DNA of 64,000 bases from a plasmid. The stretch lies in the sequence record NZ_CP024444.1; one strand, 5' to 3'. The notes under the pieces were generated by a model that did no database searches, had not been told where the DNA came from, and saw only the letters and a program-made list of their open reading frames with translations. A program made the position numbers and the translations under genes. Below, in pieces: positions 1,106-52,258 of the stretch; positions within the stretch are counted from its first letter, which is position 1; every line of letters starts with the position of its first letter.

Positions 1106-1133
1106 AATTTCTTATCCTAGAACAATCATAAGT

Positions 1134-2453
1134 CTAAACACTCTCTAATTTTTCAAACGTTTCATTATCAAGTTCACTATCGTCTTCTACTAATCGACGA
1201 TAGCTAAGTTCATCAATGATGCCATCAGAGAGCAGTTTGTCCGCTTGTCTTTTAAAGTTGATACTGCCAGTAATTCCTTCATCCATAATCGCGTCAATTT
1301 TTCTTGCTAAAATATCAGGCTGTTTAGCAAACCGCAGTAGATATTTACGCAATCCTTCTTTTAAAACCAAAACTTCTCTAACAGCAAAACGCTTGCCGTT
1401 TACATCACGTATTAGTTTTTGTGCGACCAATACCCTTGCTGAGTCAATAATATCAAATGCTTTTTCACCCTGAATTTCTGCAGGGAAACGGCTTAATAAA
1501 CGTGGAATAATTGCTTTGATATTTGTGGCGTGCGTTGTTGCAAAAACAGGGTGACCAGTTTGGGAAAGCTCAATAGCCGCTTGCACCGTAGCACCATTTC
1601 GCAACTCACCTACTAAGACTAACGCTGGAAACCGTCGTAGTGCTGCTTGGTTGGCGATATCGAAACTCCGTATATGACCACCTAACCCGATTGCACTTTG
1701 AGATACTATAGAATGAGTAGACCGTATATTGTGATATGAAAACTCGATTGGCTCTTCATGTGTCACAATATTACCTTGGATGATGGTATTGTTTTCCAAA
1801 ATATAGCGTATCGTTGCCGCAAGCGTAGTCGTTTTACCTGAACCTGTAGAGCCAGCAATAATCACAAAACCCGAGTCAATAATACAACTTTTAATAAAAT
1901 CTTCAGGAATGTTCAGCGACTCATAATGTGGGGGTGTTACTGGTAGTGGGCGTAGCGTTAACTGAAAGCCATTAGGCTCAATAACGGTATCACATCCTGC
2001 CAGCTCATAACGAAAACGCTTTTGAAGTAATCGACCAAAAGTATCACGTTCCCCATCACTATTTAACTCATTGATCTTTGATAAGCCACTTAAAGGTTCG
2101 CCATCTTTAATCATTGAGATTGCAGACTCAATCCCAGTGATTAATTTAACCATATTTACACATTCACCCGTATCAATGGTGCGATGGGTAACAGCCATTA
2201 ATTTGCCGTTGACAATGGCTGCTACAGGAATACCAGGCATGATAAAGATATCAGAAACCTCGTGCGACATGATTTCGTTAAACAGCATGCGTATTTCACG
2301 CATATCACTAAAGCGTTCAGGGTCGGTATATTTCGTAACCCAATTTATAGCTGTTAATGAACTTGCTGAAATCTTAATAGTTTCTTGTTTTTCCTCGCCT
2401 CTATCATTAGTGCTTGCTTTTGCAAATACAGGCTGTGCCACTAAAGTCTTCAT
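1134..2453 (-). CDS. type IV secretion/conjugation ATPase, PilT/DotB/VirB11 (TraJ-like) family
   Basis: 439 aa with Walker A GSTGSGKTTTLAA and the overall PilT/GspE-like secretion NTPase layout. It is translationally coupled (ATGA overlap) to the upstream gene. Confidence 0.65.
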   Translation of the reverse strand: MKTLVAQPVFAKASTNDRGEEKQETIKISASSLTAINWVTKYTDPERFSDMREIRMLFNEIMSHEVSDIFIMPGIPVAAIVNGKLMAVTHRTIDTGECVNMVKLITGIESAISMIKDGEPLSGLSKINELNSDGERDTFGRLLQKRFRYELAGCDTVIEPNGFQLTLRPLPVTPPHYESLNIPEDFIKSCIIDSGFVIIAGSTGSGKTTTLAATIRYILENNTIIQGNIVTHEEPIEFSYHNIRSTHSIVSQSAIGLGGHIRSFDIANQAALRRFPALVLVGELRNGATVQAAIELSQTGHPVFATTHATNIKAIIPRLLSRFPAEIQGEKAFDIIDSARVLVAQKLIRDVNGKRFAVREVLVLKEGLRKYLLRFAKQPDILARKIDAIMDEGITGSINFKRQADKLLSDGIIDELSYRRLVEDDSELDNETFEKLESV

Positions 2454-3748
2454 TGGCCATGCGTCCTATTGTATTCATCAATTTCAGCTGGGGTCATGAC
2501 ATGAAGAGCTGGTTTAGAACTATTGGTGTAAGTGCTAACCGTTACGCCAGTATTGCCCGGCACCACTGCAACGGCAGCATTCCCTGGAACCACTGTCGTT
2601 GTTGTTGTGCTTACAACAGCATTGGTAGCATTGGTAGCATTGGTGGTAGTTGCCGCAGTATTACTGATACTAACAGGTCGCTGCTCAATAGTGTATTTGG
2701 TTTCCAAAGGATTTGGTGTTGTTACAATACCAGTGTTATTCAACCAAGGTTGTGCGCCATTTGCTTTTAAGTCATTATTGCGTACATTTTGCATATACTT
2801 CATTAGTGCTGGCGAAAAGGTTTCCTCGATTGGGGTTTGTGATACCACGCCTGATTTCCCATCATTTTTTAACGTCACAGCACCCAAGCCAACATATTTA
2901 GAATTGTTGTATCTAGGCTTAAACGGTTGCGTGATGAATGATGGTAACACTTCGATTTGCAATAACTGTTCATCAATTCTTAAGCGATCACCGTCATTAT
3001 TGTCATACAGATTATAGCTGTTAATAACAGGCGAGTTAATTTTGCCGTCTAACACAAACTCATGGAAACGTATCATCCCAATATAGTCACGGTTAAGGCG
3101 ATCCATAGCCTGTTGTAAAATACCATTAGCTTGAGCCAATCCTAAACGCCAACCCTCTTTGGTTGCATCCTCCCATAATTTACGCTCATGACTTGTTTTT
3201 GGATAAATCTCTTTGCTCACGAATGCATAATCAGGAAATGCATTAGACTCATAGCTAAAGTTTAAGTAATCACGCCAGTTTGGTGCTGTGGTGGAAAAAC
3301 GTGCCTGTTTAACAATATTATAAATTGCGCGTGAAAGGCGAATTTGCATGTGATTGTCTTGGTTATACAGATTGCGTGCTTCAGTGATAACAGGAGGGAC
3401 GACACGCTGTTGTATCATTAAGGGTTGGAAATTATATATGGCATCTAAATTTCGAGAGTTTGTTTGTACTGCCCATTGTATTTGTTTAAAACGCATGCTC
3501 ATGGCTGCACGAATAGCAGTCATTTTTGCATATTCCATCATGGCTTTATCACGCTCGGTACTTGCCATATCAATCATGGCATTTGTTGCACCGCCACGGA
3601 CTAACTGTTTTTGATAGCTTAAAAAATCTTCTGCATTAGTGATGTTTTCAGGGCTACCAGCGGCATGACTAGCCGCTGACAAACTTGTCAAAATCACACC
3701 AAATAATGCAGCTACTCTTTTGGATGAATTACCCATGGTTTGCCTCAT
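2450..3748 (-). CDS. secreted T4SS-associated protein (possibly DotC/TraI-like), Thr/Asn-rich C-terminus
   Basis: 432 aa with an N-terminal signal peptide and a low-complexity C-terminus (TTTNATNATNAVVSTTTTTVVPGN). Its position between the lipoprotein and the ATPase mirrors dotD-dotC-dotB / traH-traI-traJ order. Confidence 0.3.
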   Translation of the reverse strand: MRQTMGNSSKRVAALFGVILTSLSAASHAAGSPENITNAEDFLSYQKQLVRGGATNAMIDMASTERDKAMMEYAKMTAIRAAMSMRFKQIQWAVQTNSRNLDAIYNFQPLMIQQRVVPPVITEARNLYNQDNHMQIRLSRAIYNIVKQARFSTTAPNWRDYLNFSYESNAFPDYAFVSKEIYPKTSHERKLWEDATKEGWRLGLAQANGILQQAMDRLNRDYIGMIRFHEFVLDGKINSPVINSYNLYDNNDGDRLRIDEQLLQIEVLPSFITQPFKPRYNNSKYVGLGAVTLKNDGKSGVVSQTPIEETFSPALMKYMQNVRNNDLKANGAQPWLNNTGIVTTPNPLETKYTIEQRPVSISNTAATTTNATNATNAVVSTTTTTVVPGNAAVAVVPGNTGVTVSTYTNSSKPALHVMTPAEIDEYNRTHGQ

Positions 3749-4284
3749 TATCTGTAAATAAGTGTGATTACTTTATTGTTTTTATCTAAGCTGATAGTCG
3801 CTTCATTCCCTAATTGCGCTGAAATTACCATGACAGCATTTTCGGGCGTAGTCCAGTTATTTGTAAAATTAACCGTACCTAAATCTCTTGACTGACCAAC
3901 TTCTAAGAAACGGTAGCCATATCGAATAGCGATAGAAGTTAATAAAGGTTGTGGCTTACCAATATAGTCAATAGCTACTTGGTCTTCTTCAAAACTACGT
4001 TGACGTGATTCTAGCGTTGCTGAATATTGTTGACGGTACTTGACGAGCATCTTTTGAGCTTCAAGTGCGCGTTGGCTTTCTTGAGAGATAATTTCTAAAG
4101 CGTTTTCAGTTTGGGGATAAACACCGCTTTTAGAAAATAAGATGCCGTTGCTAGTTGCATTCGGTGTTGATGTATAATTATGTCCACTCCAACCAAGTTG
4201 CGTACAACCTGTAGCAGATAAGATGGCACCACAAAACAAAAGACTTGCTAAAGTCTTGTTAACTTTTTCGCTATAACTTTTCAT
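3748..4284 (-). CDS. lipoprotein, possibly DotD/TraH-like
   Basis: 178 aa with signal peptide and lipobox (LSATGC). It is the first gene of the co-oriented cluster and overlaps the next gene by 1 nt. Confidence 0.3.
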   Translation of the reverse strand: MKSYSEKVNKTLASLLFCGAILSATGCTQLGWSGHNYTSTPNATSNGILFSKSGVYPQTENALEIISQESQRALEAQKMLVKYRQQYSATLESRQRSFEEDQVAIDYIGKPQPLLTSIAIRYGYRFLEVGQSRDLGTVNFTNNWTTPENAVMVISAQLGNEATISLDKNNKVITLIYR

Positions 4285-4496
4285 AATCTTTCCTAAGAAG
4301 AAGATTTAAGATTAATGTTTTAAATGTCTACTATTACTACCCTGCAATACTGATTGGGTGATAAAAGCAAAGTTATTCTACAATAAACTTTCATACTGTG
4401 TCCTTGTTTTCAATTCCTAAAACCAAAGACTTTTGTTTGAAACCTCGCATCAATAAATTTTATTTCATTATAAACATATCAAATTATGAATTAAAT

Positions 4497-5478
4497 ACCC
4501 CACTCTCAACACTTTTAAGTGGGATTGAAACAAAGAAGGCATGAACTTAAACTTTAATCAATGACCAAAAAGATTAGAGGATAAGCCATGCCCATAGATG
4601 AATTTATCATTAAAATCTATCTAATGGTAGATGACTACTACAAAAAGATTGTAACAAACCGCCTAAGACAAGGCGGATATGCACCTAAACTGACCGACAG
4701 TGAAATCATCACCATGGAGTTAGTGGGTGAATTTTTACAGATGGACACCGATTCACAAATCCATCAGTATTTTAAACAGCATTGGCAAACATGGTTTCCT
4801 AATCTAGGCTCATACCCCAACTTTGCTAAGCAGTGCGTTAATTTGCTACAAGTAAAAACTTTGATACAACAGCATATCGTTAAACAGTATGGACAAGACA
4901 ACATTCATTTTATTGATGGCTTTCCAATCCCTGTGTGTCAATATGCCAGAGCCTATCGGCATAAAACCTTCAAGTACGAAGGTAGTTATAGTTACTGCGC
5001 CTCAAAGCAACAAAAATATTTCGGCTTTGAAGGGCATTTACTTATCAATCTATCGGGCATGATAACGAATTTTACCTTTGCCTCTGCCAGAATAGATGAA
5101 AGACTCGTTGCACCTGATATGCTTGATGATATTAAAGGTTTATTGGGGGCAGATATGGGTTATATTAGCCCTGATTTATCCGAGTATTGCTTCAAGCGAT
5201 GTGTTGATTTGCAAACACCGCTTAGAAAAAATATGTCCGATAAAAGACCAATCAGTGTCCTTAATCGTCTTAAAAATGCTCGTCGCAATATTGAGACAGT
5301 AATTGGTCAGTTGTCCGAGCGGTTTAATATGCAAAAGGTTAGAGCGAGAGATTTATGGCATTTATCCCACAGATTTATGCGTAAAATCTTGGCTCATAAC
5401 TTCTGCTTTGTAATTAATAAACAGTTAGGTAATCCGCCACTTCAGTTTGAACTGCTTATTTCAAGTTGAGAGTGGGGT
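4497..5478 (+). mobile_element. IS982-family insertion sequence, copy 1
   Basis: Terminal inverted repeats ACCCCACTCTCAAC at 4497-4510 and GTTGAGAGTGGGGT at 5465-5478 flank a 293-aa DDE transposase. The IS is about 982 bp. Confidence 0.75.
4588..5469 (+). CDS. IS982-family DDE transposase
   Basis: 293 aa, starting MPIDEFIIKIYLMVDDYY. It is about 95% identical to the copy at 21820-22701. Confidence 0.75.
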   Translation: MPIDEFIIKIYLMVDDYYKKIVTNRLRQGGYAPKLTDSEIITMELVGEFLQMDTDSQIHQYFKQHWQTWFPNLGSYPNFAKQCVNLLQVKTLIQQHIVKQYGQDNIHFIDGFPIPVCQYARAYRHKTFKYEGSYSYCASKQQKYFGFEGHLLINLSGMITNFTFASARIDERLVAPDMLDDIKGLLGADMGYISPDLSEYCFKRCVDLQTPLRKNMSDKRPISVLNRLKNARRNIETVIGQLSERFNMQKVRARDLWHLSHRFMRKILAHNFCFVINKQLGNPPLQFELLISS

Positions 5479-5479
5479 A

Positions 5480-8137
5480 TTAATAGGAACTTTTCAACTC
5501 ATTTGCTAAAAATGATGCAGTGCGACTATCAAGGTTCTGTGCTACCTGTTTTGGTGTTCCTGCCACAACAATATTCCCACCAGCATTTCCAGCACCTGGT
5601 CCCACATCAATCACCCAATCTGCTTGTGCAACGGCACGCATATCATGCTCAATCATAACCACGGTATTACCCGCATCGACTAATCGCTGCAATTGAACTA
5701 ACAATCGATCTACATCTGATGGATGCAAACCTGTAGTTGGCTCATCAAGTATATACAGTGTATTTCCACGCTGATTGCGTTGCAGCTCGGTCGCCAATTT
5801 AATACGTTGCGCTTCTCCACCAGATAGTTCAGTCGCTGGTTGCCCTAAACGTAAATAACCAAGACCAATTTCCTTTAATAATTGTAGTGAACGAGCAATC
5901 GAGACCTCTCCATCAAAAAAATCACGTGCTTCATTGACGGTCATTTCTAATACTTCAGCAATATTACGTCCATTCCAGCGAATTTTCAGAGTGTCATCAT
6001 TATATCGAGCACCATGACATGTCGGACAAGGGGCATATACACTTGGCATAAACAATAATTCTACACTGACAAAGCCTTCACCTTCACAAGTTTCACATCG
6101 CCCTTTAGCCACATTAAATGAAAAACGTCCAGCATCATAATGAGCTTGGAGAGCTTCAGGAGTCCCAGCAAATAACTTTCTAACATGATCAAATAAACCC
6201 GTATAAGTTGCCAGATTAGAACGTGGAGTACGGCCAATTGGTTTTTGATCAACCTGTACCAGACGCTTTATAGCCTCCACATCACCAGCTAGAGAACCTC
6301 GTGTAACCTCGGTAACCAACATTCCTTCATTTAAAGGATTATCTTCATTATTGTTTTCAGTTTCAGATTCATTGCCTAAATATGAAAGTACTAACTCAGG
6401 TAAAGCTTGAGAAACGAGACTAGATTTACCTGAACCTGAAATACCTGTAACTGCTGTAAGTACACCAAGAGGTATACGAGCATCAATATTATGCAGGTTA
6501 TGTCGGTAAATATTGTTAAGTTCAAGCCAACCAGAGGGTGTACGTCCATAACTTTGAGTAACTGGGATTTTATTAAATAAATAACTTGCAGTACGTGAAG
6601 CTGAAATCTCACTTAAACCCTGAGGTACCCCACTATATAAAATATTACCACCTTGCTCTCCTGCATCTGGTCCAACATCCACTAACCATTGAGCACGACG
6701 CATGAGCTCTAAATCATGCTCTACAACAAATACGGAGTTCCCAGCATCTCTTAATTTATCGAGGGAATCATATAATGACTGACTATCTGAAGGATGTAAT
6801 CCAGCAGACGGCTCATCCAGTACGTAAACTACACCAAATAGCATAGAACTTAATTGTGTTGCTAAACGCAAACGTTGTAACTCTCCAGCTGAAAGAGTCG
6901 GTGTGGCTCTATCTAATGTTAGATAACCAAGGCCTAACTGGCGTAATTGATTTAAACGCCCTACCACACCACTTGCTAAACGCTGGGCAGCAATTTTCTT
7001 TTCATCTGAAAGTGCTGAAGTACGTCTTACATCTGGAGATACAGAATGCACTGCTCTACCTGTTGTTGCTCGTTCAGATCTATCAAGTTGGGTTACTTTA
7101 TTATTAGTCTTTTCGCCAGCATCATGAGCGTCGAAATCGCCAAGAACAATGGGTTCAAGCAGGCAAGTTAATTTATCCAAAGAAAGTTGCATAAACTCAC
7201 CAATATCTACTCCTGCAAAGGTAATAGATAAGGCTTCTGGCTTAAGTCGTTTACCATGGCAGGAAGGGCATATTTTTCCTTCCATAAAACGTGAAACACG
7301 TTTTTTCATCAACGTACTTTGGGTATTAGCAAAAGTATGAAGGACATAGCGACGAGCACCAGTGAAAGTGCCCATATAGCTGGGTTCTAGTTTACGTTTA
7401 AGTGCAGATTGAGTCTCAGCGGGGCTTAAACCAGCATAGACAGGAACTGTTGGGGTTTCTTCAGTAAATAAAATCCAATCTCGATCCGATTGCGGTAAAT
7501 CTTTCCATGGTCGATCAACATCATACCCTAGGGTTACTAGGATATCGCGTAAGTTTTGCCCGTGCCAAGCAGGTGGCCATGATGCGATAGCTCTCTCACG
7601 AATACTGAGTGTCGGGTCAGGAACCATTGTCGATTCTGTAACTTCATAAATGTGACCTAAACCATGACAGGTAGGACAAGCACCTTGAGGAGTGTTCGGC
7701 GAAAAGTCCTCGGCATATAACATTGGCTGATCGGCAGGATATGCACCAGCACGCGAATAAATCATTCGAACGAGACTTGATAAAGTTGTTACACTTCCAA
7801 CAGAAGAACGGGTATTACTTGCACCACGTTGTTGTTGCAATGCGACTGCTGGTGGTAGACCATCAATAGCATCAACATCTGGTACTCCTGCCTGATCAAT
7901 TAAGCGTCTTGCATAAGGTGCAACAGATTCGAAATATCTTCTTTGTGCTTCAGCAAAAATAGTCCCAAAAGCAAGTGATGATTTTCCCGAACCCGATACA
8001 CCTGAGAAAACAACAAGTGCATTTCTTGGGATAGAAACATCTACATCCTTAAGGTTATGTTCACGCGCACCTCGAACTTCAATACAATTATTAGATAAAG
8101 TAATGTTATTGGGTTCACCAAAAGAATGTGTTTTCAT
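5480..8137 (-). CDS. uvrA: UvrA-like ABC ATPase (class II UvrA paralog, shorter than canonical UvrA)
   Basis: 885 aa with an N-terminus (EVRGAREHNLKDVDVSIPRNALVVFSGVSGSGKSSLAF) nearly colinear with UvrA. It has two ABC modules with Walker A motifs and CxxC zinc-finger pairs. The stop codon is supplied at the IS982 right inverted repeat. Confidence 0.8.
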   Translation of the reverse strand: MKTHSFGEPNNITLSNNCIEVRGAREHNLKDVDVSIPRNALVVFSGVSGSGKSSLAFGTIFAEAQRRYFESVAPYARRLIDQAGVPDVDAIDGLPPAVALQQQRGASNTRSSVGSVTTLSSLVRMIYSRAGAYPADQPMLYAEDFSPNTPQGACPTCHGLGHIYEVTESTMVPDPTLSIRERAIASWPPAWHGQNLRDILVTLGYDVDRPWKDLPQSDRDWILFTEETPTVPVYAGLSPAETQSALKRKLEPSYMGTFTGARRYVLHTFANTQSTLMKKRVSRFMEGKICPSCHGKRLKPEALSITFAGVDIGEFMQLSLDKLTCLLEPIVLGDFDAHDAGEKTNNKVTQLDRSERATTGRAVHSVSPDVRRTSALSDEKKIAAQRLASGVVGRLNQLRQLGLGYLTLDRATPTLSAGELQRLRLATQLSSMLFGVVYVLDEPSAGLHPSDSQSLYDSLDKLRDAGNSVFVVEHDLELMRRAQWLVDVGPDAGEQGGNILYSGVPQGLSEISASRTASYLFNKIPVTQSYGRTPSGWLELNNIYRHNLHNIDARIPLGVLTAVTGISGSGKSSLVSQALPELVLSYLGNESETENNNEDNPLNEGMLVTEVTRGSLAGDVEAIKRLVQVDQKPIGRTPRSNLATYTGLFDHVRKLFAGTPEALQAHYDAGRFSFNVAKGRCETCEGEGFVSVELLFMPSVYAPCPTCHGARYNDDTLKIRWNGRNIAEVLEMTVNEARDFFDGEVSIARSLQLLKEIGLGYLRLGQPATELSGGEAQRIKLATELQRNQRGNTLYILDEPTTGLHPSDVDRLLVQLQRLVDAGNTVVMIEHDMRAVAQADWVIDVGPGAGNAGGNIVVAGTPKQVAQNLDSRTASFLANELKSSY

Positions 8138-20011: not shown

Positions 20012-21007
20012 CTACGAGCATAGCTCTCCGTCTTGCACTCGGGCGAAGCAGTGCTTCGCTAATCCTCGTTCAGGCGATACATATCCATTGGTAGAATGCA
20101 ATCGTTCATAGTTGTACCAGTGTACCCAATCAAGGGTTGCTAGCGCAACATCATTTACGCCATCCCATTCCTGTTTCAAATAATCAATCACCTCCGCTTT
20201 ATATAGCCCATTCACGCTTTCAGCTAGGGCATTATCTGAGCGAGGAAATAGCGAAGCACTGCTTCGCCCGGGTGCAAGACGTAGGGCTATGCCCGAAGTG
20301 GAGTCACCAGTTGTACCAACCGATGCAGCAAGCCCCGATTGTTTAAGCCGTTCACCGTACTTAATCGATAGATACTGACTACCTTTATCAGAATGATGAA
20401 TTACCCCGCTTGGTCTACCTCTAGCGTCTAAGGCTTGATTTAGGGCATCTAAGACCAGCTGAGTGTCCATATGATTCGATACTTTCCAACCCACAATAAC
20501 TCGCTTAAATACGTCAATCACAAAGGCAGTATAGACCCAACCTGATTTAGTTTTAATGTAGGTAAAATCAGCGACCTGAGGAGCACTGCTCCGCAAGAGT
20601 CTTTTCTTGTTTGGGGCATCGGCAGTAAAGTTGCGTTTAACAAGGTCATTCGGCTTGTCTTGGTCGTCTCTCTGCTTCGTGGTGATTTTGCCTTTGCCTC
20701 GCCATACGCCTTGTATGCCAAGCTGTTTCATTAAGCGTTCAACGGTGCAACGAGCAAGCTTTGGCAAACCCTCTTGTTTGAGCTTGTGCCAAACTTTACG
20801 AATGCCATAGCGACAGCCACTGGCTTGCCAAATCTGTTTGATTTGTGCCATGAGGTGTTTGTCGCTTTGTTTGCGTCGACTTTGCTTTTCTGGGTTGTCT
20901 TGTTCATCTTTGATGCGATAGTAGGTGGATGGGGCAATTGGCAGGATTTTGCAAATCGGCTCGACCCCATATTTTTCTTTTTCATCATCAATGAATTTGA
21001 CCATCAC
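20012..21007 (-). CDS. IS3-family transposase OrfB (DDE integrase core), possibly disrupted
   Basis: 331 aa with a DDE/rve core (HSDKGSQY...). The C-terminal region carries two inverted copies of a 30-bp palindrome-containing element at 20028-20058 and 20249-20280, which lengthen and alter the conserved end. Confidence 0.6.
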   Translation of the reverse strand: MMVKFIDDEKEKYGVEPICKILPIAPSTYYRIKDEQDNPEKQSRRKQSDKHLMAQIKQIWQASGCRYGIRKVWHKLKQEGLPKLARCTVERLMKQLGIQGVWRGKGKITTKQRDDQDKPNDLVKRNFTADAPNKKRLLRSSAPQVADFTYIKTKSGWVYTAFVIDVFKRVIVGWKVSNHMDTQLVLDALNQALDARGRPSGVIHHSDKGSQYLSIKYGERLKQSGLAASVGTTGDSTSGIALRLAPGRSSASLFPRSDNALAESVNGLYKAEVIDYLKQEWDGVNDVALATLDWVHWYNYERLHSTNGYVSPERGLAKHCFARVQDGELCS

Positions 21008-21321
21008 TTGGGTTTGCGGTCGAGCTCCGCCTGGGCTTCAATACCGGCTGCCTTGCGAATGATTTCGTTCGCTTGTTTGAGTTCTCTGATTTCTCGCTCA
21101 AGCTCAGCGATACGAGCCGCTTGGCTTTCAGTGCTTATAGTCACAGGATTTTGCTTAGCTAGGTGCTTTTGATGCCATGAGCGTAGGGTTTCAGGGGTAC
21201 ACCCGAATTTGGGGGCGATGGCTTGGATGGCCGCCCACAGTGAGGGATAATCTTTTTGTGATTCAATCAGTAATTCGACGGCTCTACTCTTAACTTCTGT
21301 TGGGTATTGTTTGCTTTTCAT
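21004..21321 (-). CDS. IS3-family transposase OrfA (HTH)
   Basis: 105 aa with an HTH domain and a leucine-zipper-like C-terminus, overlapping orfB. Confidence 0.7.
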   Translation of the reverse strand: MKSKQYPTEVKSRAVELLIESQKDYPSLWAAIQAIAPKFGCTPETLRSWHQKHLAKQNPVTISTESQAARIAELEREIRELKQANEIIRKAAGIEAQAELDRKPK

Positions 21322-23550: not shown

Positions 23551-24021
23551 TTCTTGAAGGACTTAATCATATCTCTATATTTTCATCCAAGTTTTCATGT
23601 ATCTTGGCGTTGAATTCGCTTAAAGGAAGTTTTCTGTTTCTAGCTTATGAAGTTCTCGCCTTTCTTACCAAAACATACTGAATTTTTTTATTAATAGCTA
23701 ATGTCAGATGCGCTCTAAGCTCGATGGTTGGGCAATCTTCACTTGAAATGTCATTAATGCTTTTTAAAATTTCAGTTTTTTAAAAATAGGTTCTGACAAT
23801 AACTGCTTCATCCCAAAAATTTAATAAGAATTTCTTGAGTAACGGGAGATAGACAATTTTTTATCACGGTTTGCGCCGCTTCTGCCCTATATGTAATGCC
23901 CTATATTTAACTTTTGAAATAGCGATAGCTTGATTTAGGTTTTGTCCAGCCAAAAACCGCAGGACTTTTATTCTGTCGCCTTATGGCGACAACGATTCGG
24001 GTTTTTGGGCTGTTGGGCTAA

Positions 24022-25210: not shown

Positions 25211-25500
25211 TATTTAAAAAACCATGACCACGGCTTTTGGTGGTAATGGTTGCAATCTTTTCAGGCAATCATTCCCACGGCTTTTGGTGGGTATGAGGCC
25301 CTCTTGTCTTAGCTCGGATAGTCAAGGCTGGCAAGTATGAAATGCAGGCAATCGCCTACGGATCATGCGGCTTGATGACTTATCGCGTTAGCAGGAAGTC
25401 AGTAAGACCATGAAGCCGTCAGCGAGTGACAAGAGTAATACTGCCAAGACTGACGTTGCTGGCGTCTTTTTGCCAGCAATCCGCCAAAGTCTTTATCAGT
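25211..25500. repeat. 290-bp GC-rich repeated element, copy 1 (candidate structured ssDNA/RNA element)
   Basis: It is about 97% identical to 27968-28258, non-coding, and contains internal direct repeats (CACCAAAAGCCGTGG twice) and the hairpin GCTGGCgtctttttGCCAGC. Confidence 0.6.
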
Positions 25501-25524
25501 TAAAAAACTAACCTTTGCGCAAAT

Positions 25525-26001
25525 TTATGAATTATCTAAAGTAGCTTTATTGGCTAATAACCGAATTAAATCTTTTAACTCATAATCTTTGTGAGCAATA
25601 GCACCAACCTTAATTAACCCATTCTCAATATGGTATAAATCATAAACAATAGCGTCTGATACCAAAACGGGTTGTTCATCAGGTACATTAATATCAATTA
25701 ATCGGATAACAGGTTCGCTATCATCATCCACGCCAGCCGAACCAAAACGTTCTGCACTCACAATAAAAGAAACATCGAAACCATCTAGCCAAAGTTCAAA
25801 TAAAAGACTTGCCGGGATATCACGACTACCTTTTTCATAATTGGCATACGTGGATTGGGCAATCGCTAATCGCTCATAAACAGATTTAGCCGTATAACCT
25901 AACCTTAACCGTTCTTGCTTTAATCGCTCACCGATAAACTTGAACGGATATTTTTTAAATTCAGCATCAATCTTTGCCATAAGTTGTTCTTGGGGGTTCA
26001 T
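25525..26001 (-). CDS. XRE-family (Cro/CI-type HTH) transcriptional regulator
   Basis: 158 aa with an N-terminal HTH (IGERLKQERLRLGYTAKSVYERLAIAQSTYANYEKG). Its own upstream region lacks the conserved promoter module but keeps the TAGCGATAGCTTGATATAG motif. Confidence 0.65.
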   Translation of the reverse strand: MNPQEQLMAKIDAEFKKYPFKFIGERLKQERLRLGYTAKSVYERLAIAQSTYANYEKGSRDIPASLLFELWLDGFDVSFIVSAERFGSAGVDDDSEPVIRLIDINVPDEQPVLVSDAIVYDLYHIENGLIKVGAIAHKDYELKDLIRLLANKATLDNS

Positions 26002-26153
26002 GAGTAAATCCTATGTACCAGTATAAGTATAGTCATATAAAATGCATTAAATATAGCCATTTGACCACATGTTGTCTATCACAACGATAGCATCCATAAG
26101 TAACATTTGTATTAGCGATAGCTTGATATAGTCCATCACGCCAAATTTTTGGA

Positions 26154-26193
26154 AAAAAACCCAACCAATTTTTTGGCTGGGCGTTGGGTTTGA
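26154..26193 (-). terminator. rho-independent terminator after unit 26247-26609
   Basis: On the minus strand a GC stem (CCCAACGCCCAGCC...GGTTGGG) is followed by a T7 run. Confidence 0.5.
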
Positions 26194-26902: not shown

Positions 26903-27799
26903 TTAAGCGGCTATGGGTTGTTTCTTCTGCGACCAATTTTCTAAGATGTAATTAACTGCTTTTTGGGCGTCCGCTGAAGCTTTGAAGATGGCGCGTTTGT
27001 CAGCTTTTAGCACTTGTAACCATGATTTTAAATAGCTTGCATGGTTGGTTAGTGTGGTTTCTAAGCATCCCATTTCAGCGCATAAAAAGCTTGCGCCTAG
27101 TTCTGCTACAAGTTCCTCCCGAGCGTATGCGGTATCACCGAATTTTTTACCGTATTGGCGGTTTAATCGTTTTTCTGCACCCGTGCTGTGGACTAGCTCA
27201 TGTCCAAGCGTCGCAAACTGTTCATCTAGGTTTACAAAGTCGCTTGCATTCGGCATGCATATCGTATCGATGTAGGGTTTATAACAAGCTGAATTGTAAC
27301 CGTATTCAATTTTTACGTCGGTATTTGCAAAGATGGTTTTTGCGGTTTCATTCTCTGCAATGGGTGTTAACGTTTCGTCTTCATCAGGGGTGATTGCGCT
27401 AATATCGCCATCCATTTGGCTAATGTTAAACACACAAAAACTATTTAAAAATGGGATGGTTTCGATGTCACCCTCTTTGTTTTCTTTCTCAATGACATTG
27501 TAATATGCTAGGCGTACCGATTTTGCACCTTTTTTAACCTGTAAGTTTTTGGCTTGGGCTTGCTTGTAGGTCATCCATACATTGTATTTATAATCGCTGT
27601 TAATCATGGCTTTGGCTAAGATTAGACGATTAACGCCTTTGTAGAGTTCACCTGTTGAGCCATTGACGCCACCGAAAATGTTGGTAACCGGACGGGTTTT
27701 CCAGCCTTTTTTCCATTGTGGTAAATCAGTTTCAAGAAGTTCAATCATTGCATTGGTTACTTCTTGGTACATATCGATTTTAGTAGCTGATTTTGTCAT
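26903..27799 (-). CDS. ardC: ArdC-like antirestriction protein (N-terminal ssDNA-binding domain plus zincin-like metalloprotease domain)
   Basis: N-terminus MTKSATKIDMYQEVTNAMIELLETDLPQWKKGW and the HExxH motif (LGHELVHSTGAE) match ArdC. The true start is the ATG at 27797-27799, which follows an AAAAGGA RBS. The ORF track extends upstream through the leader. Confidence 0.8.
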   Translation of the reverse strand: MTKSATKIDMYQEVTNAMIELLETDLPQWKKGWKTRPVTNIFGGVNGSTGELYKGVNRLILAKAMINSDYKYNVWMTYKQAQAKNLQVKKGAKSVRLAYYNVIEKENKEGDIETIPFLNSFCVFNISQMDGDISAITPDEDETLTPIAENETAKTIFANTDVKIEYGYNSACYKPYIDTICMPNASDFVNLDEQFATLGHELVHSTGAEKRLNRQYGKKFGDTAYAREELVAELGASFLCAEMGCLETTLTNHASYLKSWLQVLKADKRAIFKASADAQKAVNYILENWSQKKQPIAA

Positions 27800-27967: not shown

Positions 27968-28258
27968 ATTAACAACCATGACCACGGCTTTTGGTGGTGA
28001 TGGTTGCAAGCTTTTCAGGCAATCATTCCCACGGCTTTTGGTGGGTATGAGGCCCTCTTGTCTTAGCTCGGATAGTCAAGGCTGGCAAGTATGAAACGCA
28101 GGCAATCGCCTACGGATCATGCGGCTTGATGACTTATCGCGTTAGCAGGAAGTCAGCAAGACCATGAAGCCGTCAGCGAGTGACAAGAGTAATACTGCCA
28201 AGACTGACGTTGCTGGCGTCTTTTTGCCAGCAATCCGCCAAAGTCTTTATCAGTTTAA
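27968..28258. repeat. 290-bp GC-rich repeated element, copy 2
   Basis: Near-identical to 25211-25500. It is followed by about 700 bp without a convincing ORF (28260-28945). Confidence 0.6.
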
Positions 28259-30848: not shown

Positions 30849-31607
30849 TTATGCTAAGGGACGTTTTTTGCTCTTGGATTTATCATTTTTACGGCATTCA
30901 TTTAATGCCACAAAACTTTTAGCAAGGGTTAGGATGCCTTCTTTATATACTTTCCAAAAATCTAAGGCATCGAATTCCATTCGGGCTATCTCGCTACTGC
31001 TAAAATTTTCCCATTCTTCGATGGTGTGGCATTTACAGCCGATACGGATTTTGTCATTCATCAAGCTGATAAACCACTGATAATCATATAAACACAATAC
31101 CGGATAAGGTAGCTTGGCGAAGGTGATATTTGCACCACGAAAAATGGCTTGTTCAATGTCGCATTGGGTGAAGTCGGTTTGTTTCAATGATGCGTTGGTA
31201 AAGTTGGTATTAATGGTATTGGCATTGGTAAAAATTGAGCAATCAAGGTTACAGCCATCAAGATGGGTTAATTCTAGGTTGCTATCCGTAAAGTTACAAT
31301 TGCTAAGGTTGGCTTGATAAAAATAAGCTTGGCGTAAATCTGCGTTGGTAAAATTTACCCGACGTCCTTTTACATTGGTCATGTTGGTTTGGCATAAGTT
31401 AGCATTTTCAAAATTGGCATTGCTGATATCGCAGTTAATAAGGCTTGCACCGAATAAATTTGCACCGCTTAGGTTTGCACCTGTTAAATCAAACCCTTTT
31501 AAGTCCATGTCTTTTAAGTCGATGTTGCGTAAGTCGGCTTTAACTAGGGTGTCTAAATCAAGTGTGATAGTCGATTTGTTGTATACATGCTTGATGGTGA
31601 TAGCCAT
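30849..31607 (-). CDS. pentapeptide-repeat protein with conserved C-terminal RIGCxCH domain
   Basis: 252 aa with tandem A(D/N)LxX pentapeptides (ANLSGANLFGASLINCDISNANFENANL...) and the C-terminus ...WFISLMNDKIRIGCKCHTIEEW. Confidence 0.75.
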   Translation of the reverse strand: MAITIKHVYNKSTITLDLDTLVKADLRNIDLKDMDLKGFDLTGANLSGANLFGASLINCDISNANFENANLCQTNMTNVKGRRVNFTNADLRQAYFYQANLSNCNFTDSNLELTHLDGCNLDCSIFTNANTINTNFTNASLKQTDFTQCDIEQAIFRGANITFAKLPYPVLCLYDYQWFISLMNDKIRIGCKCHTIEEWENFSSSEIARMEFDALDFWKVYKEGILTLAKSFVALNECRKNDKSKSKKRPLA

Positions 31608-31654
31608 GAGAGTATTCCTTTTGGTTGGGTGATGGTAGCGAGCCTATCTCGTTT

Positions 31655-31700
31655 CCATGTGCTTATAATAACGCTTTAACCGTGTATAATCAAGCGGTTT
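31655..31700 (-). promoter_or_regulatory. representative copy of the conserved sigma70-type promoter of the array (-35 TTGATT, 17-nt spacer, -10 TATTAT) bracketed by CGGTTAAACCG-like sites
   Basis: On the minus strand the sequence reads CGGTTAAACCGCTTGATTATACACGGTTAAAGCGTTATTATAAGCACATGG. The -10 is at 31663-31668 and the -35 at 31686-31691. The same block recurs upstream of about 35 genes with at most a few substitutions. Confidence 0.55.
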
Positions 31701-31895
31701 AACCGTGTTTTTACCCATTTTCCGATAAACGGTAAAAGCGTTTTTCGGGTCGGCTGACACGTTTCCCTCCAGGTAAGAATGTTTTTTTGATATAGCGATC
31801 GTTTGATATAGGCCATCACGCACGCCCAAACAGCGAGCCAAAAAAAACGCCTTACTATCAAGTAAAGCGTTGGGTGGGTGGGTCAAGGCTTATCG

Positions 31896-33050: not shown

Positions 33051-34037
33051 TTAAGCCACTGCCGGATGATGGTTTGGGTGGGTACCATAAACATCAAGCA
33101 CATTTAAGGCGTGTCTTGTCCCTGCCAGTCCATTAAATATCACCACACCATCCGCGCCTGTGTACAAGCAGATATCAAGGGGTGCGCCAATATACTTACC
33201 GCGAATAGGTTGGAACTTTTTATCAAACATAATCGCTTGCATCTTGCCTGTCTGCATCTGCCCACTATTTGGCGTATCAAGGTGGGTGACTTCATAAAAA
33301 TGGGTATGAGAGCATTCGTCCATGGCATTGGCTAAAATCGTACCTATCTCAATTGGCTTGCTGTCATTGGCGTGGCTTAATGCCTTTTGGGTATCGACGT
33401 GGTCTTCAATCGCATCATATAGGTGCGCCATGACCAATAGAATACTATTCCACCCGTGATAAAAATAGGTGGCATGGGGCAAGCACAAGGCATAGCCTTT
33501 TTTGTGTTCTTCGGTGGTGGCAAACAATAAAATATCATCATCAAGCCAACTGCCAATTAACTCAACATAGCGAGCATTAAAATAGCTTTTTACGCCCTCT
33601 AAGCGATTGCTATACAATGGGTGCAAGTGGCTGTGGATGTGGTAGCCTTGCTTTTGGACAATGGCTTTGGTCTGTTCGCTTGCATCCTTGAGCCTTTCTT
33701 CAAAGTCAGTGATTTGCTGACGGTCACGCTCAAGCACGAATTGACGAGCCGACCACAACTCCCCAAAAAAGTAACTAGGCGTGGTGTATTCAGCATCAAG
33801 TAACGGGCAATCATTGCGTGACGTGAGCACATAACGCCCATTGTTATTGACCGATAGCAAACAAGGCGGCTGAAATAGCGTACCATCACAAAAATAGACG
33901 CCATCTTGAACGTGGCTTTTTTTGGTGACCCGTTGAAAAGGTTGTGAGCAAGTTTTGCTTAGTCCGCGCATTTCTTCGCATAGGGCTAGATGGTCGGTGC
34001 TGTGTACGATACTTTTCATCAAAACATATAAATTCAT
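33051..34037 (-). CDS. family B paralog (second gene of a two-gene unit)
   Basis: 328 aa. It has no full module of its own; the module lies upstream of the preceding 38-aa peptide gene. Confidence 0.5.
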   Translation of the reverse strand: MNLYVLMKSIVHSTDHLALCEEMRGLSKTCSQPFQRVTKKSHVQDGVYFCDGTLFQPPCLLSVNNNGRYVLTSRNDCPLLDAEYTTPSYFFGELWSARQFVLERDRQQITDFEERLKDASEQTKAIVQKQGYHIHSHLHPLYSNRLEGVKSYFNARYVELIGSWLDDDILLFATTEEHKKGYALCLPHATYFYHGWNSILLVMAHLYDAIEDHVDTQKALSHANDSKPIEIGTILANAMDECSHTHFYEVTHLDTPNSGQMQTGKMQAIMFDKKFQPIRGKYIGAPLDICLYTGADGVVIFNGLAGTRHALNVLDVYGTHPNHHPAVA

Positions 34038-34113: not shown

Positions 34114-34230
34114 TTATTTTTTAAGCACGCGTTTAACACTGGGGGCGACTTTGCGTTGAGCCGTTCCCAAATAGCGATACATCATTAAAGACAATGGGTA
34201 AATAAAAGCACTGATTTGTAAAAAATTCAT
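34114..34230 (-). CDS. 38-aa hydrophobic peptide (MNFLQISAFIYPLSLMMYRYLGTAQRKVAPSVKRVLKK)
   Basis: Not in the ORF track. An ATG follows the conserved module and AAAAGGA RBS, and the peptide has a single transmembrane-like segment. Confidence 0.4.
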   Translation of the reverse strand: MNFLQISAFIYPLSLMMYRYLGTAQRKVAPSVKRVLKK

Positions 34231-38045: not shown

Positions 38046-38165
38046 TTACATTCTGGCACAGCGAAACACATAATAAATCACGGCAATGAATAATACCAAA
38101 ACAACGTTGCTGTCAAATAAAGACATAATGGCATTAAAGGCTTCGAGTTGTGATGAATATTGCAT
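38046..38165 (-). CDS. 39-aa hydrophobic peptide (MQYSSQLEAFNAIMSLFDSNVVLVLFIAVIYYVFRCARM)
   Basis: Not in the ORF track. It has its own full conserved module (38170-38300) and one predicted transmembrane helix. Confidence 0.4.
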   Translation of the reverse strand: MQYSSQLEAFNAIMSLFDSNVVLVLFIAVIYYVFRCARM

Positions 38166-40525: not shown

Positions 40526-41044
40526 CTATAACGACATGCCGAGTGCATCATGTACGCTGTTAGTGATGATTTTCATCATGTCGGGGTTTTTGCTAATTTC
40601 TCTTAGGATGTTGCTAACCATGGTTTCCTGTAAATCGATTTCAGGATGCTCACCATCATATAAGATAAATTGCAAATCGGCATCATTTTGCAAGGCTTCA
40701 GGGATTTCAAAACGGATGATATTGTCTTCGTTTAACTCCACCATAGAAGTACCCACTGGAACATAGCTCAATTCATTGACGTCACGTAACATATCGTCGA
40801 TTAGCGAATTGGTAAGGTCTATGAATGGGATAAAATCAGGAAGGGCTTGTACACACGCCACAAAATGAATCTCTATACCTGACTCGGTGACAAGGTTTAA
40901 CTCCATAATACGACGGGCAATGACATGGTCAAAACCATACGGGCGTGCTTCAGGAATGATACCTTTAAAGCGAGTGTAGCTGTCAATTGACGTCACAGTC
41001 AGTTTGGCGTTGCTTAAATTGTCGATGATGTCTTGGATAGTCAT
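40526..41044 (-). CDS. family C paralog (unknown function)
   Basis: 172 aa, colinear with 49150-49680 (...LTVTSID...HPEIDLQE...). Confidence 0.5.
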   Translation of the reverse strand: MTIQDIIDNLSNAKLTVTSIDSYTRFKGIIPEARPYGFDHVIARRIMELNLVTESGIEIHFVACVQALPDFIPFIDLTNSLIDDMLRDVNELSYVPVGTSMVELNEDNIIRFEIPEALQNDADLQFILYDGEHPEIDLQETMVSNILREISKNPDMMKIITNSVHDALGMSL

Positions 41045-43011: not shown

Positions 43012-43626
43012 TTATTTGGCTTGGGTGGCTGCCACATAAAAATATGCGCCCTCTTTGCCGATATGGTGTCGAAACTGCTCACCAAAGCGTTTAACCGTGC
43101 TTTCGGTAATCGGGAATGCTTTGCCACGATGACTAAATGTTATGATTTTCTCGTCGATGTGTTGCGGTAGGTTTAATTCAGGGGCATCACTTAGCACAAA
43201 TAGCATGCGTTCACGTTCAGCGGTGACGTGTTGTTTGGCTTGGTTGTATGACGCTTTTTTATCGGCATGGGCTTGCTTGTTTTTGGCGTTGCTGTCAATG
43301 AGTGTTTGTATTTGCTCACAGCTCACAGCACCGTTGTTGGTCGCAAGTTGGATAGCCGTGTTAATGGTCTTGGTATCAAACCAACCTTTTTGGATATGTT
43401 CATTCGCCCATTTAAAATAGTCTTGGGTGCGCTTGGTGTTGTTCATGTTATAGCGATTGCGATTGGCGATTTCTTTGTCGCGCATTCGAGAAATCACATT
43501 ATTGGGCGCACCACTACCACGAAAATTTTCAATGAGCGCAGACACGTCACTACCAAAACGCCCATTATTCAATAGGTTGTTAATTTGAGTTTCCGACTCA
43601 AGGATATCTGATACAAAAGTATTCAT
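43012..43626 (-). CDS. hypothetical protein (probably co-transcribed with ssb; upstream module truncated)
   Basis: 204 aa. The spacer to ssb is only 87 bp and carries a degenerate module. Confidence 0.45.
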   Translation of the reverse strand: MNTFVSDILESETQINNLLNNGRFGSDVSALIENFRGSGAPNNVISRMRDKEIANRNRYNMNNTKRTQDYFKWANEHIQKGWFDTKTINTAIQLATNNGAVSCEQIQTLIDSNAKNKQAHADKKASYNQAKQHVTAERERMLFVLSDAPELNLPQHIDEKIITFSHRGKAFPITESTVKRFGEQFRHHIGKEGAYFYVAATQAK

Positions 43627-43713
43627 AAAAACGTTCCTTTTGGTTGGGGTTGGTTGCGAGCCTATCTCGTTTCCATAATGAAATTATAGCGGTTTAAGGG
43701 ATTAAGTGCTTAC

Positions 43714-44208
43714 TTAAACTTTGGCTTTTGCCTTAACTAAAAAGGCTTCAGGGATGCCATCATCTTGTTGTACCATTGGTTGCTGATTAGCTTGTACCAT
43801 TGGTTGGCTATTGGCAACAGGTTGGCTTGCATACTCATCTTGGTCAGGGAATGGGATATTGGGTCGTCCACCACCGCTACTGCCTAGCATTTGCAAAGAG
43901 TCGCCATAGATTTCAGTCACATAGCGTTCAATGTTGTTGCTGTCCGTGTATTTGCGGTTGCGTAGTTCACCCTCAATAAAAACGCCAGCACCTTTTTTTA
44001 GGTAATTTTGGGCGATTTCTGCGAGTCGGTTGAACAACACCACGCGATGCCATTCGGTACGCTCTTTTTTCTCTTGGGTAGTCTTGTCTGTCCAAGTTTT
44101 CGTAGTAGCCATTGAAATGGTTGCGCACACGCCACCACTTGGCAATTGACGTACATCAGGGTCAGCACCTAAGTTGCCGATTAAAATTACTTTGTTTACA
44201 CCTTTCAT
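43714..44208 (-). CDS. ssb: single-stranded DNA-binding protein
   Basis: The OB-fold N-terminus (MKGVNKVILIGNLGADPDVRQLPSGG...WHRVVLFNRLAEIA) and a Gln/Pro-rich tail ending DDGIPEAF are present. The start is the ATG at 44206-44208. Confidence 0.85.
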   Translation of the reverse strand: MKGVNKVILIGNLGADPDVRQLPSGGVCATISMATTKTWTDKTTQEKKERTEWHRVVLFNRLAEIAQNYLKKGAGVFIEGELRNRKYTDSNNIERYVTEIYGDSLQMLGSSGGGRPNIPFPDQDEYASQPVANSQPMVQANQQPMVQQDDGIPEAFLVKAKAKV

Positions 44209-49149: not shown

Positions 49150-49680
49150 TTAACTTACCACGCCTTGCTTTGGCTCGCCTTTGTCAAAACTTTCTTGGAT
49201 GACTTGATTAACAATTGCCATAATCGCATCATCCTTTTTCATGCTACCGACGACATCCCTCACCCAAACTTCTTGCAAGTCGATTTCGGGGTGTCGGTTG
49301 TCATATAAGTAATAATAAAAGTCTTCATCTTCTTCTTGCTCTGCGGTTAAATCAAAGGCAATGATATTGTCTTCATGCAAAAATGCCATCGCTTCAGCAA
49401 TTGATACCGGGGTAAACTCCCCTTGTTTTTTCAAAATATCATCCAATATGCCAAACTTATTAAATGATAAGCTTTCAAGATAAACACGCACGCTTGCATT
49501 AAAGCTAAAGCTAATACCTGTTTCAGTGGTTACCTTCACATCTACAAATCGCCAAGCGGTCAATTCATCAATGCCTGTTAAGTCAGCCTCGGTCACGCCA
49601 TGTATTCGGGTGGCGGTATCAACGTGGGTAACGGTAACGCTGGCATTGGTAAGATTACTAATGAGATTTTGTAAAAGCAT
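49150..49680 (-). CDS. family C paralog
   Basis: 176 aa, see 40526-41044. Confidence 0.5.
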   Translation of the reverse strand: MLLQNLISNLTNASVTVTHVDTATRIHGVTEADLTGIDELTAWRFVDVKVTTETGISFSFNASVRVYLESLSFNKFGILDDILKKQGEFTPVSIAEAMAFLHEDNIIAFDLTAEQEEDEDFYYYLYDNRHPEIDLQEVWVRDVVGSMKKDDAIMAIVNQVIQESFDKGEPKQGVVS

Positions 49681-52003: not shown

Positions 52004-52258
52004 GATATTTTATCCTGTTGGTTGGGGTCGGACGCGAGCCTATCTCGTTTCCATGTGCTTATAATAACGCTTTAACCGTGTATAATCAAGCGGTTTAACC
52101 GTGTTTTTACCCATTTTCCGATAAACGGTAAAAGCGTTTTTAAAGTCGGCTGGCACGTTTCCCTACAGGTAAGAATGCTTTTTTGATATAGCGATAATTT
52201 GATATAGTACATCACGCCCATCGGTGTCACCAAACTGTTTGGGTGACACTAACCCACT

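Follow-up and report, generated by a model that had tools for sequence, protein, structure and literature searches.

ArdK represses five promoters of the IncW plasmid R388, PardC and Pssb among them, by way of repeats at the -35 element (direct repeats of the TTGACA type), and the CUP elements of IncN plasmids (pKM101) are ArdK sites. ArdK belongs to the KorA family, whose members bind compact operators, and represses its own promoter, and the KorA site of IncP-1 plasmids is located at the -10 element. In R388, strong and tightly repressed plasmid promoters overshoot after transfer. Zygotic induction is also said to be documented for RP4. We analyzed a 64,000-nucleotide (nt) stretch of plasmid DNA from sequence record NZ_CP024444.1 (hereafter the window), in which an 11-base-pair (bp) dyad, CGSTWWWASCG (hereafter the box), is repeated at the promoters of a long minus-strand gene array. 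The boxes are probably operators of one sequence-specific dimeric repressor that would control a plasmid establishment regulon. In function, this set of sites most resembles the ArdK/CUP regulon and has a looser likeness to KorA/KorB control; it is a member of neither. The region around the array is 97% identical to pMOXF1 (CP040258.1), a 248-kilobase (kb) plasmid of Moraxella osloensis, and the array is collinear with pMOXF1 203436–246443. Judged by this identity, the stretch is from an M. osloensis plasmid that is a relative of pMOXF1, and it contains Dot/Icm-like transfer genes.

An 11-bp dyad confined to one promoter array

We found 95 matches to CGSTWWWASCG in the window, compared with 0.39 ± 0.60 expected from 100 dinucleotide-preserving shuffles, none of which (0/100) reached 95. 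All of these boxes fell within 24400–61833, where they were grouped in 36 clusters, and none occurred elsewhere in the window. One-mismatch boxes outside the array were at chance (5 observed vs. ~3 expected). Anchoring on the box beside the -35 (box 2 below) together with the -35 itself recovered the same arrangement throughout 24.4–61.8 kb. The array consists of 36 promoter modules on the minus strand, each located before one gene or occasionally two. A first-pass annotation of this DNA, made from the sequence alone, had proposed a shared operator in about 35 promoters, and that estimate was accurate: we counted 36 modules plus one decayed module. The same annotation described the site as an imperfect palindrome. 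The box has an inverted 5-1-5 dyad geometry, in which CGGTTAAACCG is a perfect palindrome, whereas the description fits the variants CGCTAAAACCG, CGGTTAAAGCG, and CGSTTTTACCG.

The array promoters take the form TTGAYT-17-TATWAT, with 9–11 of 12 consensus positions matched and a 17-bp spacer. A spacer box (box 3) was present in 36/36 modules, occupying nt 6–16 of the 17-bp spacer and ending 1 nt before the -10. The first bases of box 3 on the minus strand are at 24410, 25122, 26684, 27875, 29409, 30633, 31682, 33013, 34304, 35340, 36506, 37811, 38239, 39590, 40342, 41117, 41794, 42792, 44287, 45572, 46586, 47159, 47950, 48917, 49754, 50608, 52078, 54126, 54787, 55815, 56702, 57236, 58173, 59184, 60688, and 61810. 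Box 2 was in register in 35/36 modules (34 exact copies and one with a single mismatch), with its 3' end 1 nt before the -35, and the distance from box 2 to box 3 was 23 bp start to start in 35/36 modules. Box 1, the upstream copy, was exact in 24/36 modules, degenerate in 3, and absent in 9, and it was separated from box 2 by 33–36 bp start to start, mostly 35. Three sites had been proposed for every module. This is accurate for the spacer box and nearly so for box 2, but box 1 reaches only 24 modules, or 27 with the degenerate copies.

The module at 31640–31740 (minus strand) illustrates the arrangement, and three boxes around the -35 can be read directly from the sequence there as had been claimed. 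Box 1 (CGCTTTTACCG, 31730–31740) is centered near -77 from the inferred start site and would be an auxiliary site. Box 2 (CGGTTAAACCG, 31695–31705) is centered near -42 and is followed by one C and then by the -35 TTGATT (31688–31693; array consensus TTGAYT). Box 3 (CGGTTAAAGCG, 31672–31682), the universal and position-invariant copy and the proposed primary operator, is separated by one T from the -10 TATTAT (31665–31670), which is TATAAT in other modules. The complete minus-strand order is CGCTTTTACCG, 24 nt, and then CGGTTAAACCG-C-TTGATT-ATACA-CGGTTAAAGCG-T-TATTAT. The upstream box had been placed about 25 bp from the -35, but the gap from its 3' end to the -35 is 36 bp, and that to box 2 is 24 bp. 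The module also contains, outside the claimed operator, a 5' mRNA stem-loop (31632–31658, minus strand) followed by a C/A-rich tract and the Shine-Dalgarno sequence AAAGGA. It drives a gene for a pentapeptide-repeat protein of 252 amino acids (aa) (30849–31607, minus strand; Pentapeptide_4, 3.5e-35) that has the same annotation in pMOXF1. The intrinsic terminator of the upstream cassette (31846–31871, minus strand; 11-bp stem and T-run) makes this module an independent transcription unit.

Box conservation and the proposed operator

Positions C1, G2, T4, A8, and G11 were the same in every box 2 and box 3 of the 35 in-register modules, and C10 was found in 69/70 of these boxes. The -35 hexamer was more variable than these conserved box positions. 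Across the 26 orthologous modules that could be aligned between the window and pMOXF1, box 3 had 10 differences, all at its three degenerate positions and 0 at the eight conserved ones, and box 2 had one difference (conserved position 10), compared with 20 in the six bases after the -10. The minority bases within boxes were G<->C or A<->T exchanges in 76/77 cells, with no transitions, so that the dyad pattern was kept, while neighboring columns contained 17 transitions and 25 other transversions. Boxes also occurred in other layouts. In module 57236, another box is found 34 bp upstream of the one in the spacer, and its register to the -35 differs from that in the other modules. The pMOXF1 promoter at 41301/41331 (TTTACA-17-TAGAAT) has a spacer box, a second box at ~+4 to +14, and degenerate copies upstream. 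The position of box 3 next to the -10 was unchanged in the diverged pMOXF1 promoters. Outside the array, pMOXF1 contained only three box-bearing promoters. One drives a HEAT-repeat gene beside par/rep, another a small gene together with a DNA methyltransferase gene, and the third a cluster in a second ssb/pentapeptide region. The idea of a shared operator is upheld in that a real dyad is located in the spacer and at the -35 and marks one regulon (36 array promoters, and three extra-array promoters in pMOXF1), but no binding protein is assignable to it.

Such repetition might require no dedicated regulator. The boxes could be passengers of an amplified and homogenized module, or they could aid recognition by polymerase. 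Box 2 lies across the place of the proximal UP subsite, which its A/T-rich center could mimic, and the 3' CG of box 3 provides a G two bases before the -10 (at -14), as in a partial extended -10. Consistent with this explanation, the entire core from ~-30 to +45 is conserved beyond the boxes, gene conversion reshuffles the module variants, recombination between modules adds or removes cassettes, and no regulator is assignable. However, the same dyad is present two or three times in each module at fixed spacings. Amplification of whole modules does not account for this repetition, which favors a function, and one of these copies is located at ~-77, where polymerase makes no sequence-specific contact. 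The spacer is normally free to vary, and here it is the most conserved part, with no change at any conserved box 3 position between the two plasmids. Boxes persist in the rearranged layouts, including the one downstream of the -10 in pMOXF1, and a plasmid with ~36 consensus promoters free of repression would be heavily burdened. We therefore consider an unregulated module unlikely, although it is the strongest of the alternatives to a shared repressor.

The modules have also exchanged sequence. Differences between orthologous modules were swaps among existing variants (GGTT<->GCTA; C<->G at position 9). pMOXF1 contains one extra cassette, consisting of a module and a gene for a 158-aa protein, with its junction inside a module (window 52007–52164 vs. 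pMOXF1 235675–236605), and its array also carries an IS5-adhP-IS5 insertion (pMOXF1 224006–228246). These swaps and junctions mark the modules as substrates of recombination and gene conversion. A related explanation is that the boxes themselves are recombinase sites that assemble or shuffle the cassettes, in an integron-like or dif-module-like manner. The array is cassette-like, the cassette missing from the window has its junction inside a module, further conserved junction repeats exist, and XerC/D-dependent dif modules are known in Moraxellaceae plasmids. The geometry argues otherwise, as two 11-bp dyads lie 12 bp apart with the -35 between them, whereas the cores of tyrosine recombinase sites have central regions of 6–8 bp. 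The boxes do not resemble attC or dif, no integrase was found beside the array (only a sub-threshold Phage_int_SAM_5 match), and homologous recombination between repeats of 160 bp accounts for the indel junction. Recombinase sites are thus a very improbable explanation of the boxes. We rejected an integron cassette array because neither the array nor its flanks contained an integrase domain that scored above threshold, and because the cassettes all come with a promoter and a terminator of their own. A dif-module array was rejected on its lack of resemblance to dif sequences.

As palindromes, the boxes are complementary to one another, and hairpin models were therefore tested. One possibility is a single-strand promoter of the Frpo/ssi type, active before complementary-strand synthesis, and another is an RNA hairpin between boxes 2 and 3 that insulates cassettes from read-through. 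Box-box inverted repeats of 13–21 nt and a U-rich run (UUAUUAU) 3' of box 3 are in line with such structures, and Frpo-type promoters are common in leading regions. We found no compensatory variation, however, since box 2 position 3 and box 3 position 9 combined as 14/7/7/7, which is independence. The only inverted repeats were the box-box pairs, and the best-pairing boxes differed between modules. Folds of single-stranded DNA were weak (z of -1.7 to -2.7 for two modules on both strands), of low probability, and inconsistent, and they left the -35 and -10 unpaired. The module had no similarity to other plasmids, including F-type plasmids, at blastn sensitivity, and real terminators are already present behind each gene. 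A box-box hairpin, whether of RNA or of single-stranded DNA, was rejected on the missing covariation, the weak and inconsistent folds, and pairing partners that vary by module, and we regard a role in nucleic acid structure generally as remote.

The arrangement is instead that of an operator acting by steric exclusion: hexamers with 17-bp spacing, a dyad overlapping the promoter core, and sites confined to the modules, which are paralogous and homogenized. A protein on the spacer box or on the box at the -35 would compete with polymerase because these boxes are inside the spacer and against the -35, and we infer from this placement that the boxes are bound by a protein and that its effect is negative. 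The opposite sign would be expected if they bound an activator or an anti-silencer that switches the array on, such as a class II-type factor at ~-42. The center of box 2 near -42 is the classical class II activator position, the A/T-rich flanks are a possible target of silencing proteins, and the sign of regulation is not readable from sequence. On the other hand, the hexamers are near consensus (9–11/12) with the optimal 17-bp spacing, so no activator is needed, and the universal box is in the spacer, a place from which a bound protein normally blocks polymerase. A MerR-type activator would require spacers of 19–20 bp rather than 17 bp, and the regulators found in the R388 network are all repressors. 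Activation is accordingly improbable, more so than an unregulated module.

Under the favored reading of one shared repressor, a dimeric protein would recognize the outer CGST/ASCG quartets across the A/T-rich center, with the spacer box, fixed to the nucleotide next to the -10, as its primary operator. A repressor on the spacer box and on the box at the -35 would keep RNA polymerase off a strong promoter, and the extra boxes could provide cooperativity and a higher local concentration of repressor. In an established host, the repressor would hold ~36–40 strong promoters low. In a repressor-free recipient, once the DNA is double-stranded, all cassettes would fire together until repressor fills ~100 sites per plasmid copy. 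With that number of sites, substantial repressor would have to accumulate before shut-off, giving joint firing and then silencing, by the same logic as the overshoot in R388.

Both genes that the first-pass annotation had named as candidate regulators exist according to domain matches. The first is an XRE-type helix-turn-helix gene (25525–26001, minus strand; 158 aa; Pfam HTH_3, 3.4e-6), which has no module; the array contains no other DNA-binding gene. Its separate promoter (TAGACA-17-TATATT at 26050–26078) lies behind an upstream terminator (26159–26182), an arrangement that would suit an unregulated source of repressor. A different 15-bp dyad, GTTGTgatagACAAC, lies over its -35. The XRE protein has a paralogue in pMOXF1 (99224–99643) and almost no homologues elsewhere. 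The second candidate is a KorA-family gene at the end of the window (63776–64000, plus strand), where the 5' part is present of a gene that encodes 106 aa in pMOXF1. It is the first gene of a korA-parA-parB operon, which in pMOXF1 (1–1985) contains ParA at 101–895 and ParB with a KorB domain at 897–1985. The KorA-family protein matched PF16509 KORA with an E-value of 4e-8 (33.7 bits vs. a cut-off of 26.7), and its best solved relatives, with weak E-values, were a 'KORA domain-containing protein' (7bca/7bbq) and the TrfB repressor. The gene is separated from the array by a palindrome cluster and an IS605-family TnpB gene (62143–63249, upstream of the array). We consider the KorA-family protein a possible but doubtful regulator of the boxes and the XRE protein slightly less likely still, and we lean toward another plasmid or host protein.

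The palindrome cluster upstream of korA-parAB consists of five copies of the 14-bp palindrome TTGCGTTAACGCAA (63386–63603), spaced alternately by 56 and 46 bp. This is an even 7+7 palindrome that occurs only as a 5-copy cluster, both in the window and in the whole of pMOXF1. It had been suggested that the operators of the KorA-like gene share a GTTAAC core with the box. The likeness turned out to be superficial, and TTGCGTTAACGCAA was rejected as a relative of the box on its distribution in a single cluster and its geometry. The cluster is probably a partition site or an operator cluster for the KorB-type ParB, judging from its position. Together with korA, parA, and parB it has the layout of an IncP-like central control region in a Moraxella megaplasmid. 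Also in the upstream region of the korA-like gene, TTAAACGTTTAATAGTAGGCTCAG (~63650–63700, minus strand) resembles a decayed box 3, -10, and hairpin apex, and it includes a perfect 12-bp palindrome, TTAAACGTTTAA. This stretch could be either a module remnant or a KorA-type operator. Homologues of the KorA-like protein (30–39% identity) were found in small MOBF Moraxella plasmids, among them MOBF/F-type conjugative plasmids of M. catarrhalis and M. ovis (35–39% identity). These small plasmids have 2-copy upstream repeats of ~137 bp, of which the first precedes an antirestriction gene or a hypothetical gene and the second the other of these (4160–4295 and 6515–6650 in one plasmid, 1793–1930 and 4815–4952 in another). 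The repeats of the M. ovis plasmid contain A/T-rich palindromes, and the palindromes of the small plasmids are unrelated to the box. The repeats are a miniature version of the same theme.

Several points weigh against a single shared repressor. No cognate protein is assignable to the box from sequence. Neither the XRE nor the KorA-family upstream region has a box, and a box-less promoter of its own would be atypical for an autoregulated repressor of the KorA/ArdK type. Small proteins with and without a module had no DNA-binding match in Pfam, PHROGs, or PDB, and no small basic DNA-binding protein is under module control. The box centers are separated by 23 and 35 bp, or 2.2 and 3.3 helical turns, distances that are out of phase for simple face-to-face cooperativity. 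The whole 75-bp module core is highly conserved, so box conservation is partly shared ancestry, and the variant swaps point to gene conversion between modules, which leaves few independent substitution events behind the 'flip-only' pattern. The module is confined to one lineage (pMOXF1, the window, and near-identical metagenome contigs), which precludes phylogenetic footprinting. Finally, the array is no more than a putative 'leading region', since no relaxase was found.

Cassettes, gene content, and replicon

Most array genes end in a strong intrinsic terminator. With their own promoters and terminators, the cassettes are independent transcription units that each contain a sigma-70 promoter, a 5' stem-loop, a C/A-rich leader with a Shine-Dalgarno sequence, one gene, and a terminator. 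The leaders in 36/36 modules fold into a bipartite stem-loop at the mRNA 5' end (from the inferred start) with an invariant apex, GAG-AWAGG-CUC. The outer helix covaries, with at least 7 pairs (AUGG/CCAU, UGGAA/UUCCA, GGAU/AUCC, GUGAUU/AAUCAC, AUCAAG/CUUGGU, AGAUA/UAUCU, and AAACGAG/CUCGUUU) and three further variants in pMOXF1. RNAalifold on a MAFFT leader alignment recovered only the 3-bp apex, and the covarying outer helix was visible by per-sequence folding. No Rfam family matched the modules, the leaders, or the 288-nt element described below. The hairpin suggests a second, post-transcriptional layer of control that could work through mRNA stability or as a protein-binding site.

Other repeats accompany the modules. 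A second intergenic repeat, CTAWATCAAGNNATCGCTA(WWWCAAA), was present in ~27 copies 3' of most cassette terminators (e.g., 31793–31811, 26113–26131, and 23920–23938, minus strand), and also behind the last cassette, where no module comes next. In 'long' modules, a GGGGAAACGTGCCAGCCGACC block follows CTAWATCAAGNNATCGCTA ahead of box 1. The decayed 37th module (43627–43710, minus strand) is located downstream of ssb and before the gene at 43012–43626. It keeps a partial box (CCCTTAAACCG), the -10 TATAAT, the hairpin, and the Shine-Dalgarno sequence, and is missing box 2 and the -35. Its equivalent at pMOXF1 223001 has an intact single box, CGGTAAAACCG, followed by CTATAAT, so that only the spacer box is kept. 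Two modules drive only tiny open reading frames (38046–38165 and 34114–34230, minus strand) of 39 and 38 aa, one of them hydrophobic, which are either small peptides or decayed cassettes. The next gene after one of these, at 33051–34037, has kept only a hairpin remnant.

A 288-nt element occurred in two 98%-identical copies (25217–25504 and 27971–28258, minus strand), each directly upstream of a module, and one copy begins 21 nt past the XRE stop codon. As RNA it has a predicted folding energy of -101.8 kcal/mol (z = -5.7) with a terminator-like hairpin at its end, and among plasmids it was found only in pMOXF1. It may be a structured 3' untranslated region or a non-coding RNA. We looked for a decayed XRE copy beside the second element and found none, and a role as antisense partner of the leaders was rejected because there was no complementarity of at least 7 nt.

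The genes driven by the modules include a full-length ArdC (26903–27799; ArdcN plus metallopeptidase) and an SSB (43714–44208), and four pentapeptide-repeat proteins are encoded in the array. The remaining ~30 array proteins (24022–61735, minus strand) have no Pfam family, and most are acidic, with net charges of -9 to -19. Two of them are mutual paralogues (49150–49680 and 40526–41044). The acidic proteins are candidate DNA mimics or anti-defense proteins. This gene content fits the profile of a plasmid establishment or anti-defense region, and its location next to Dot/Icm-like genes fits such a region in a conjugative plasmid.

The Dot/Icm-like genes are downstream of the array on the same strand (833–4284, minus strand) and matched DotD-like, T4SS_TraI (DotC-like), and T2SSE/DotB-like ATPase domains. 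In pMOXF1, the DotD/DotC/DotB-like genes adjoin the array directly, whereas in the window ~19 kb of accessory DNA flanked by insertion sequences (IS) intervenes. This accessory DNA is common to Acinetobacter plasmids and includes UvrA-like and glutathione/formaldehyde genes. An ALIL pseudoknot (RF01497, 81.7 bits; 20930–21046, minus strand) is located at the frameshift site of an IS3-family transposase gene (20012–21321) and is ordinary. pMOXF1 also encodes a type IV coupling protein. Because of this protein and the Dot/Icm-like genes, the replicon probably conjugates by means of a Dot/Icm-like (IncI-type) apparatus, although a relaxase was not found and its PLSDB typing is non-mobilizable.

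The module was rare in sequence collections. A blastn search at distant sensitivity across 72,556 plasmids matched only pMOXF1, and the 72,555 others were without the module. It had 0 matches among 50,697 phage records. The two-box pattern had 0 matches in 185,579 species-representative genomes and 0 in IMG/VR, and in JGI metagenomes it recovered two near-identical short contigs and one chance tandem repeat. The TraI-like backbone protein had no relatives in the genome collection searched. An exact-protein look-up recovered at least 10 ENA metagenome contigs from different samples, including wastewater, all of them near-identical to the window. These contigs have the same cassettes, and their box variants are those of the window, not those of pMOXF1. 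The plasmid lineage is therefore rare in genome collections, yet it is present in the environment, as the recovery of its cassettes from different samples indicates.

A more extended version of the shared-repressor reading joins these elements. The array would be a 38-kb plasmid 'arsenal' of ~37 self-contained cassettes, each also with a junction repeat, in which ~100 operators titrate one repressor to give a timed, all-or-none burst of mostly acidic (DNA-mimic-like) anti-defense proteins. The GAG-AWAGG-CUC hairpin would provide the second layer of control, and the modules would double as homology tracts for the gain, loss, and reshuffling of cassettes. We put this forward as speculation that is unlikely to be right in every part. 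If one repressor gates all these promoters, the plasmid would be a clean natural system for the timing of an anti-defense burst after conjugative transfer. The array flags ~30 uncharacterized, mostly acidic proteins as anti-restriction or anti-defense candidates that would be co-regulated with ArdC, SSB, and pentapeptide-repeat proteins. The box is short, well defined, and highly repeated, so its regulator should be easy to fish by DNA pull-down, and the module is a possible portable, tightly switchable expression part for Moraxellaceae. The interest of the array lies mainly in its scale, the conserved mRNA hairpin, and the large set of co-regulated unknown proteins.

Comparison with known systems

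The likeness to the ArdK/CUP system of IncN (pKM101/R46) and IncW (R388) plasmids lies in a repeated upstream element that contains a promoter and a site at or near its -35 and is placed before ardC, ssb, and other genes. A KorA/ArdK-family gene is also present on this plasmid. ArdK/CUP promoters are tightly repressed in established cells and give a burst after transfer, a behavior that we infer for this array. The differences are considerable. The array has 36–40 promoters, compared with 5–6 for ArdK/CUP, and if one repressor gates them all it would be the largest known single-operator establishment regulon. Its sites are inverted 5-1-5 dyads of unrelated sequence, whereas ArdK sites are direct repeats. 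Each promoter has two or three of these dyads, and the universal copy is in the spacer. The module had no sequence similarity to CUP among the 72,556 plasmids searched by blastn. The KorA-family gene is outside the regulon and has a box-less promoter, in contrast to ArdK, which represses itself.

The IncP-1 plasmids (RK2/RP4) have a korA-parA(incC)-parB(korB) operon like the one found here, and they also reuse short palindromes at many promoters, at the -10 side and just upstream of the -35. The IncP-1 operators are OA (GTTTAGCTAAAC), of 12 bp at the -10, and OB (TTTAGCSGCTAAA), of 13 bp upstream of the -35 or distant from it. Two proteins and two palindromes thus serve the two positions in IncP-1, whereas here one motif of other sequence and length occupies both, and the par and transfer promoters that we examined are outside the regulon.

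Operators of the lambdoid OR1-3 and 434 type are similar in having several dyads over one promoter with an XRE/Cro-type helix-turn-helix gene nearby. Phage operators are ~23 bp apart center to center and have conserved outer bases and a tolerant A/T-rich center, as the boxes do. They differ in length (14–17 bp vs. the 11-bp sites here) and in serving one switch rather than ~36 promoters. The array has no divergent promoter pair, and the XRE protein is no more than a candidate binder of the boxes. Frpo/ssi promoters are likewise found upstream of ssb and anti-defense genes, all in the same direction, on conjugative plasmids. In contrast to these, the modules have no long hairpin that pairs the -35 and -10, no covariation, no inverted promoter copy, and no sequence similarity. 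By these features, the array promoters read as ordinary double-strand promoters. Measured against these systems, we consider the motif and the scale of the array to be new, while a repressor-gated establishment regulon is already known from ArdK/CUP and KorA/KorB.

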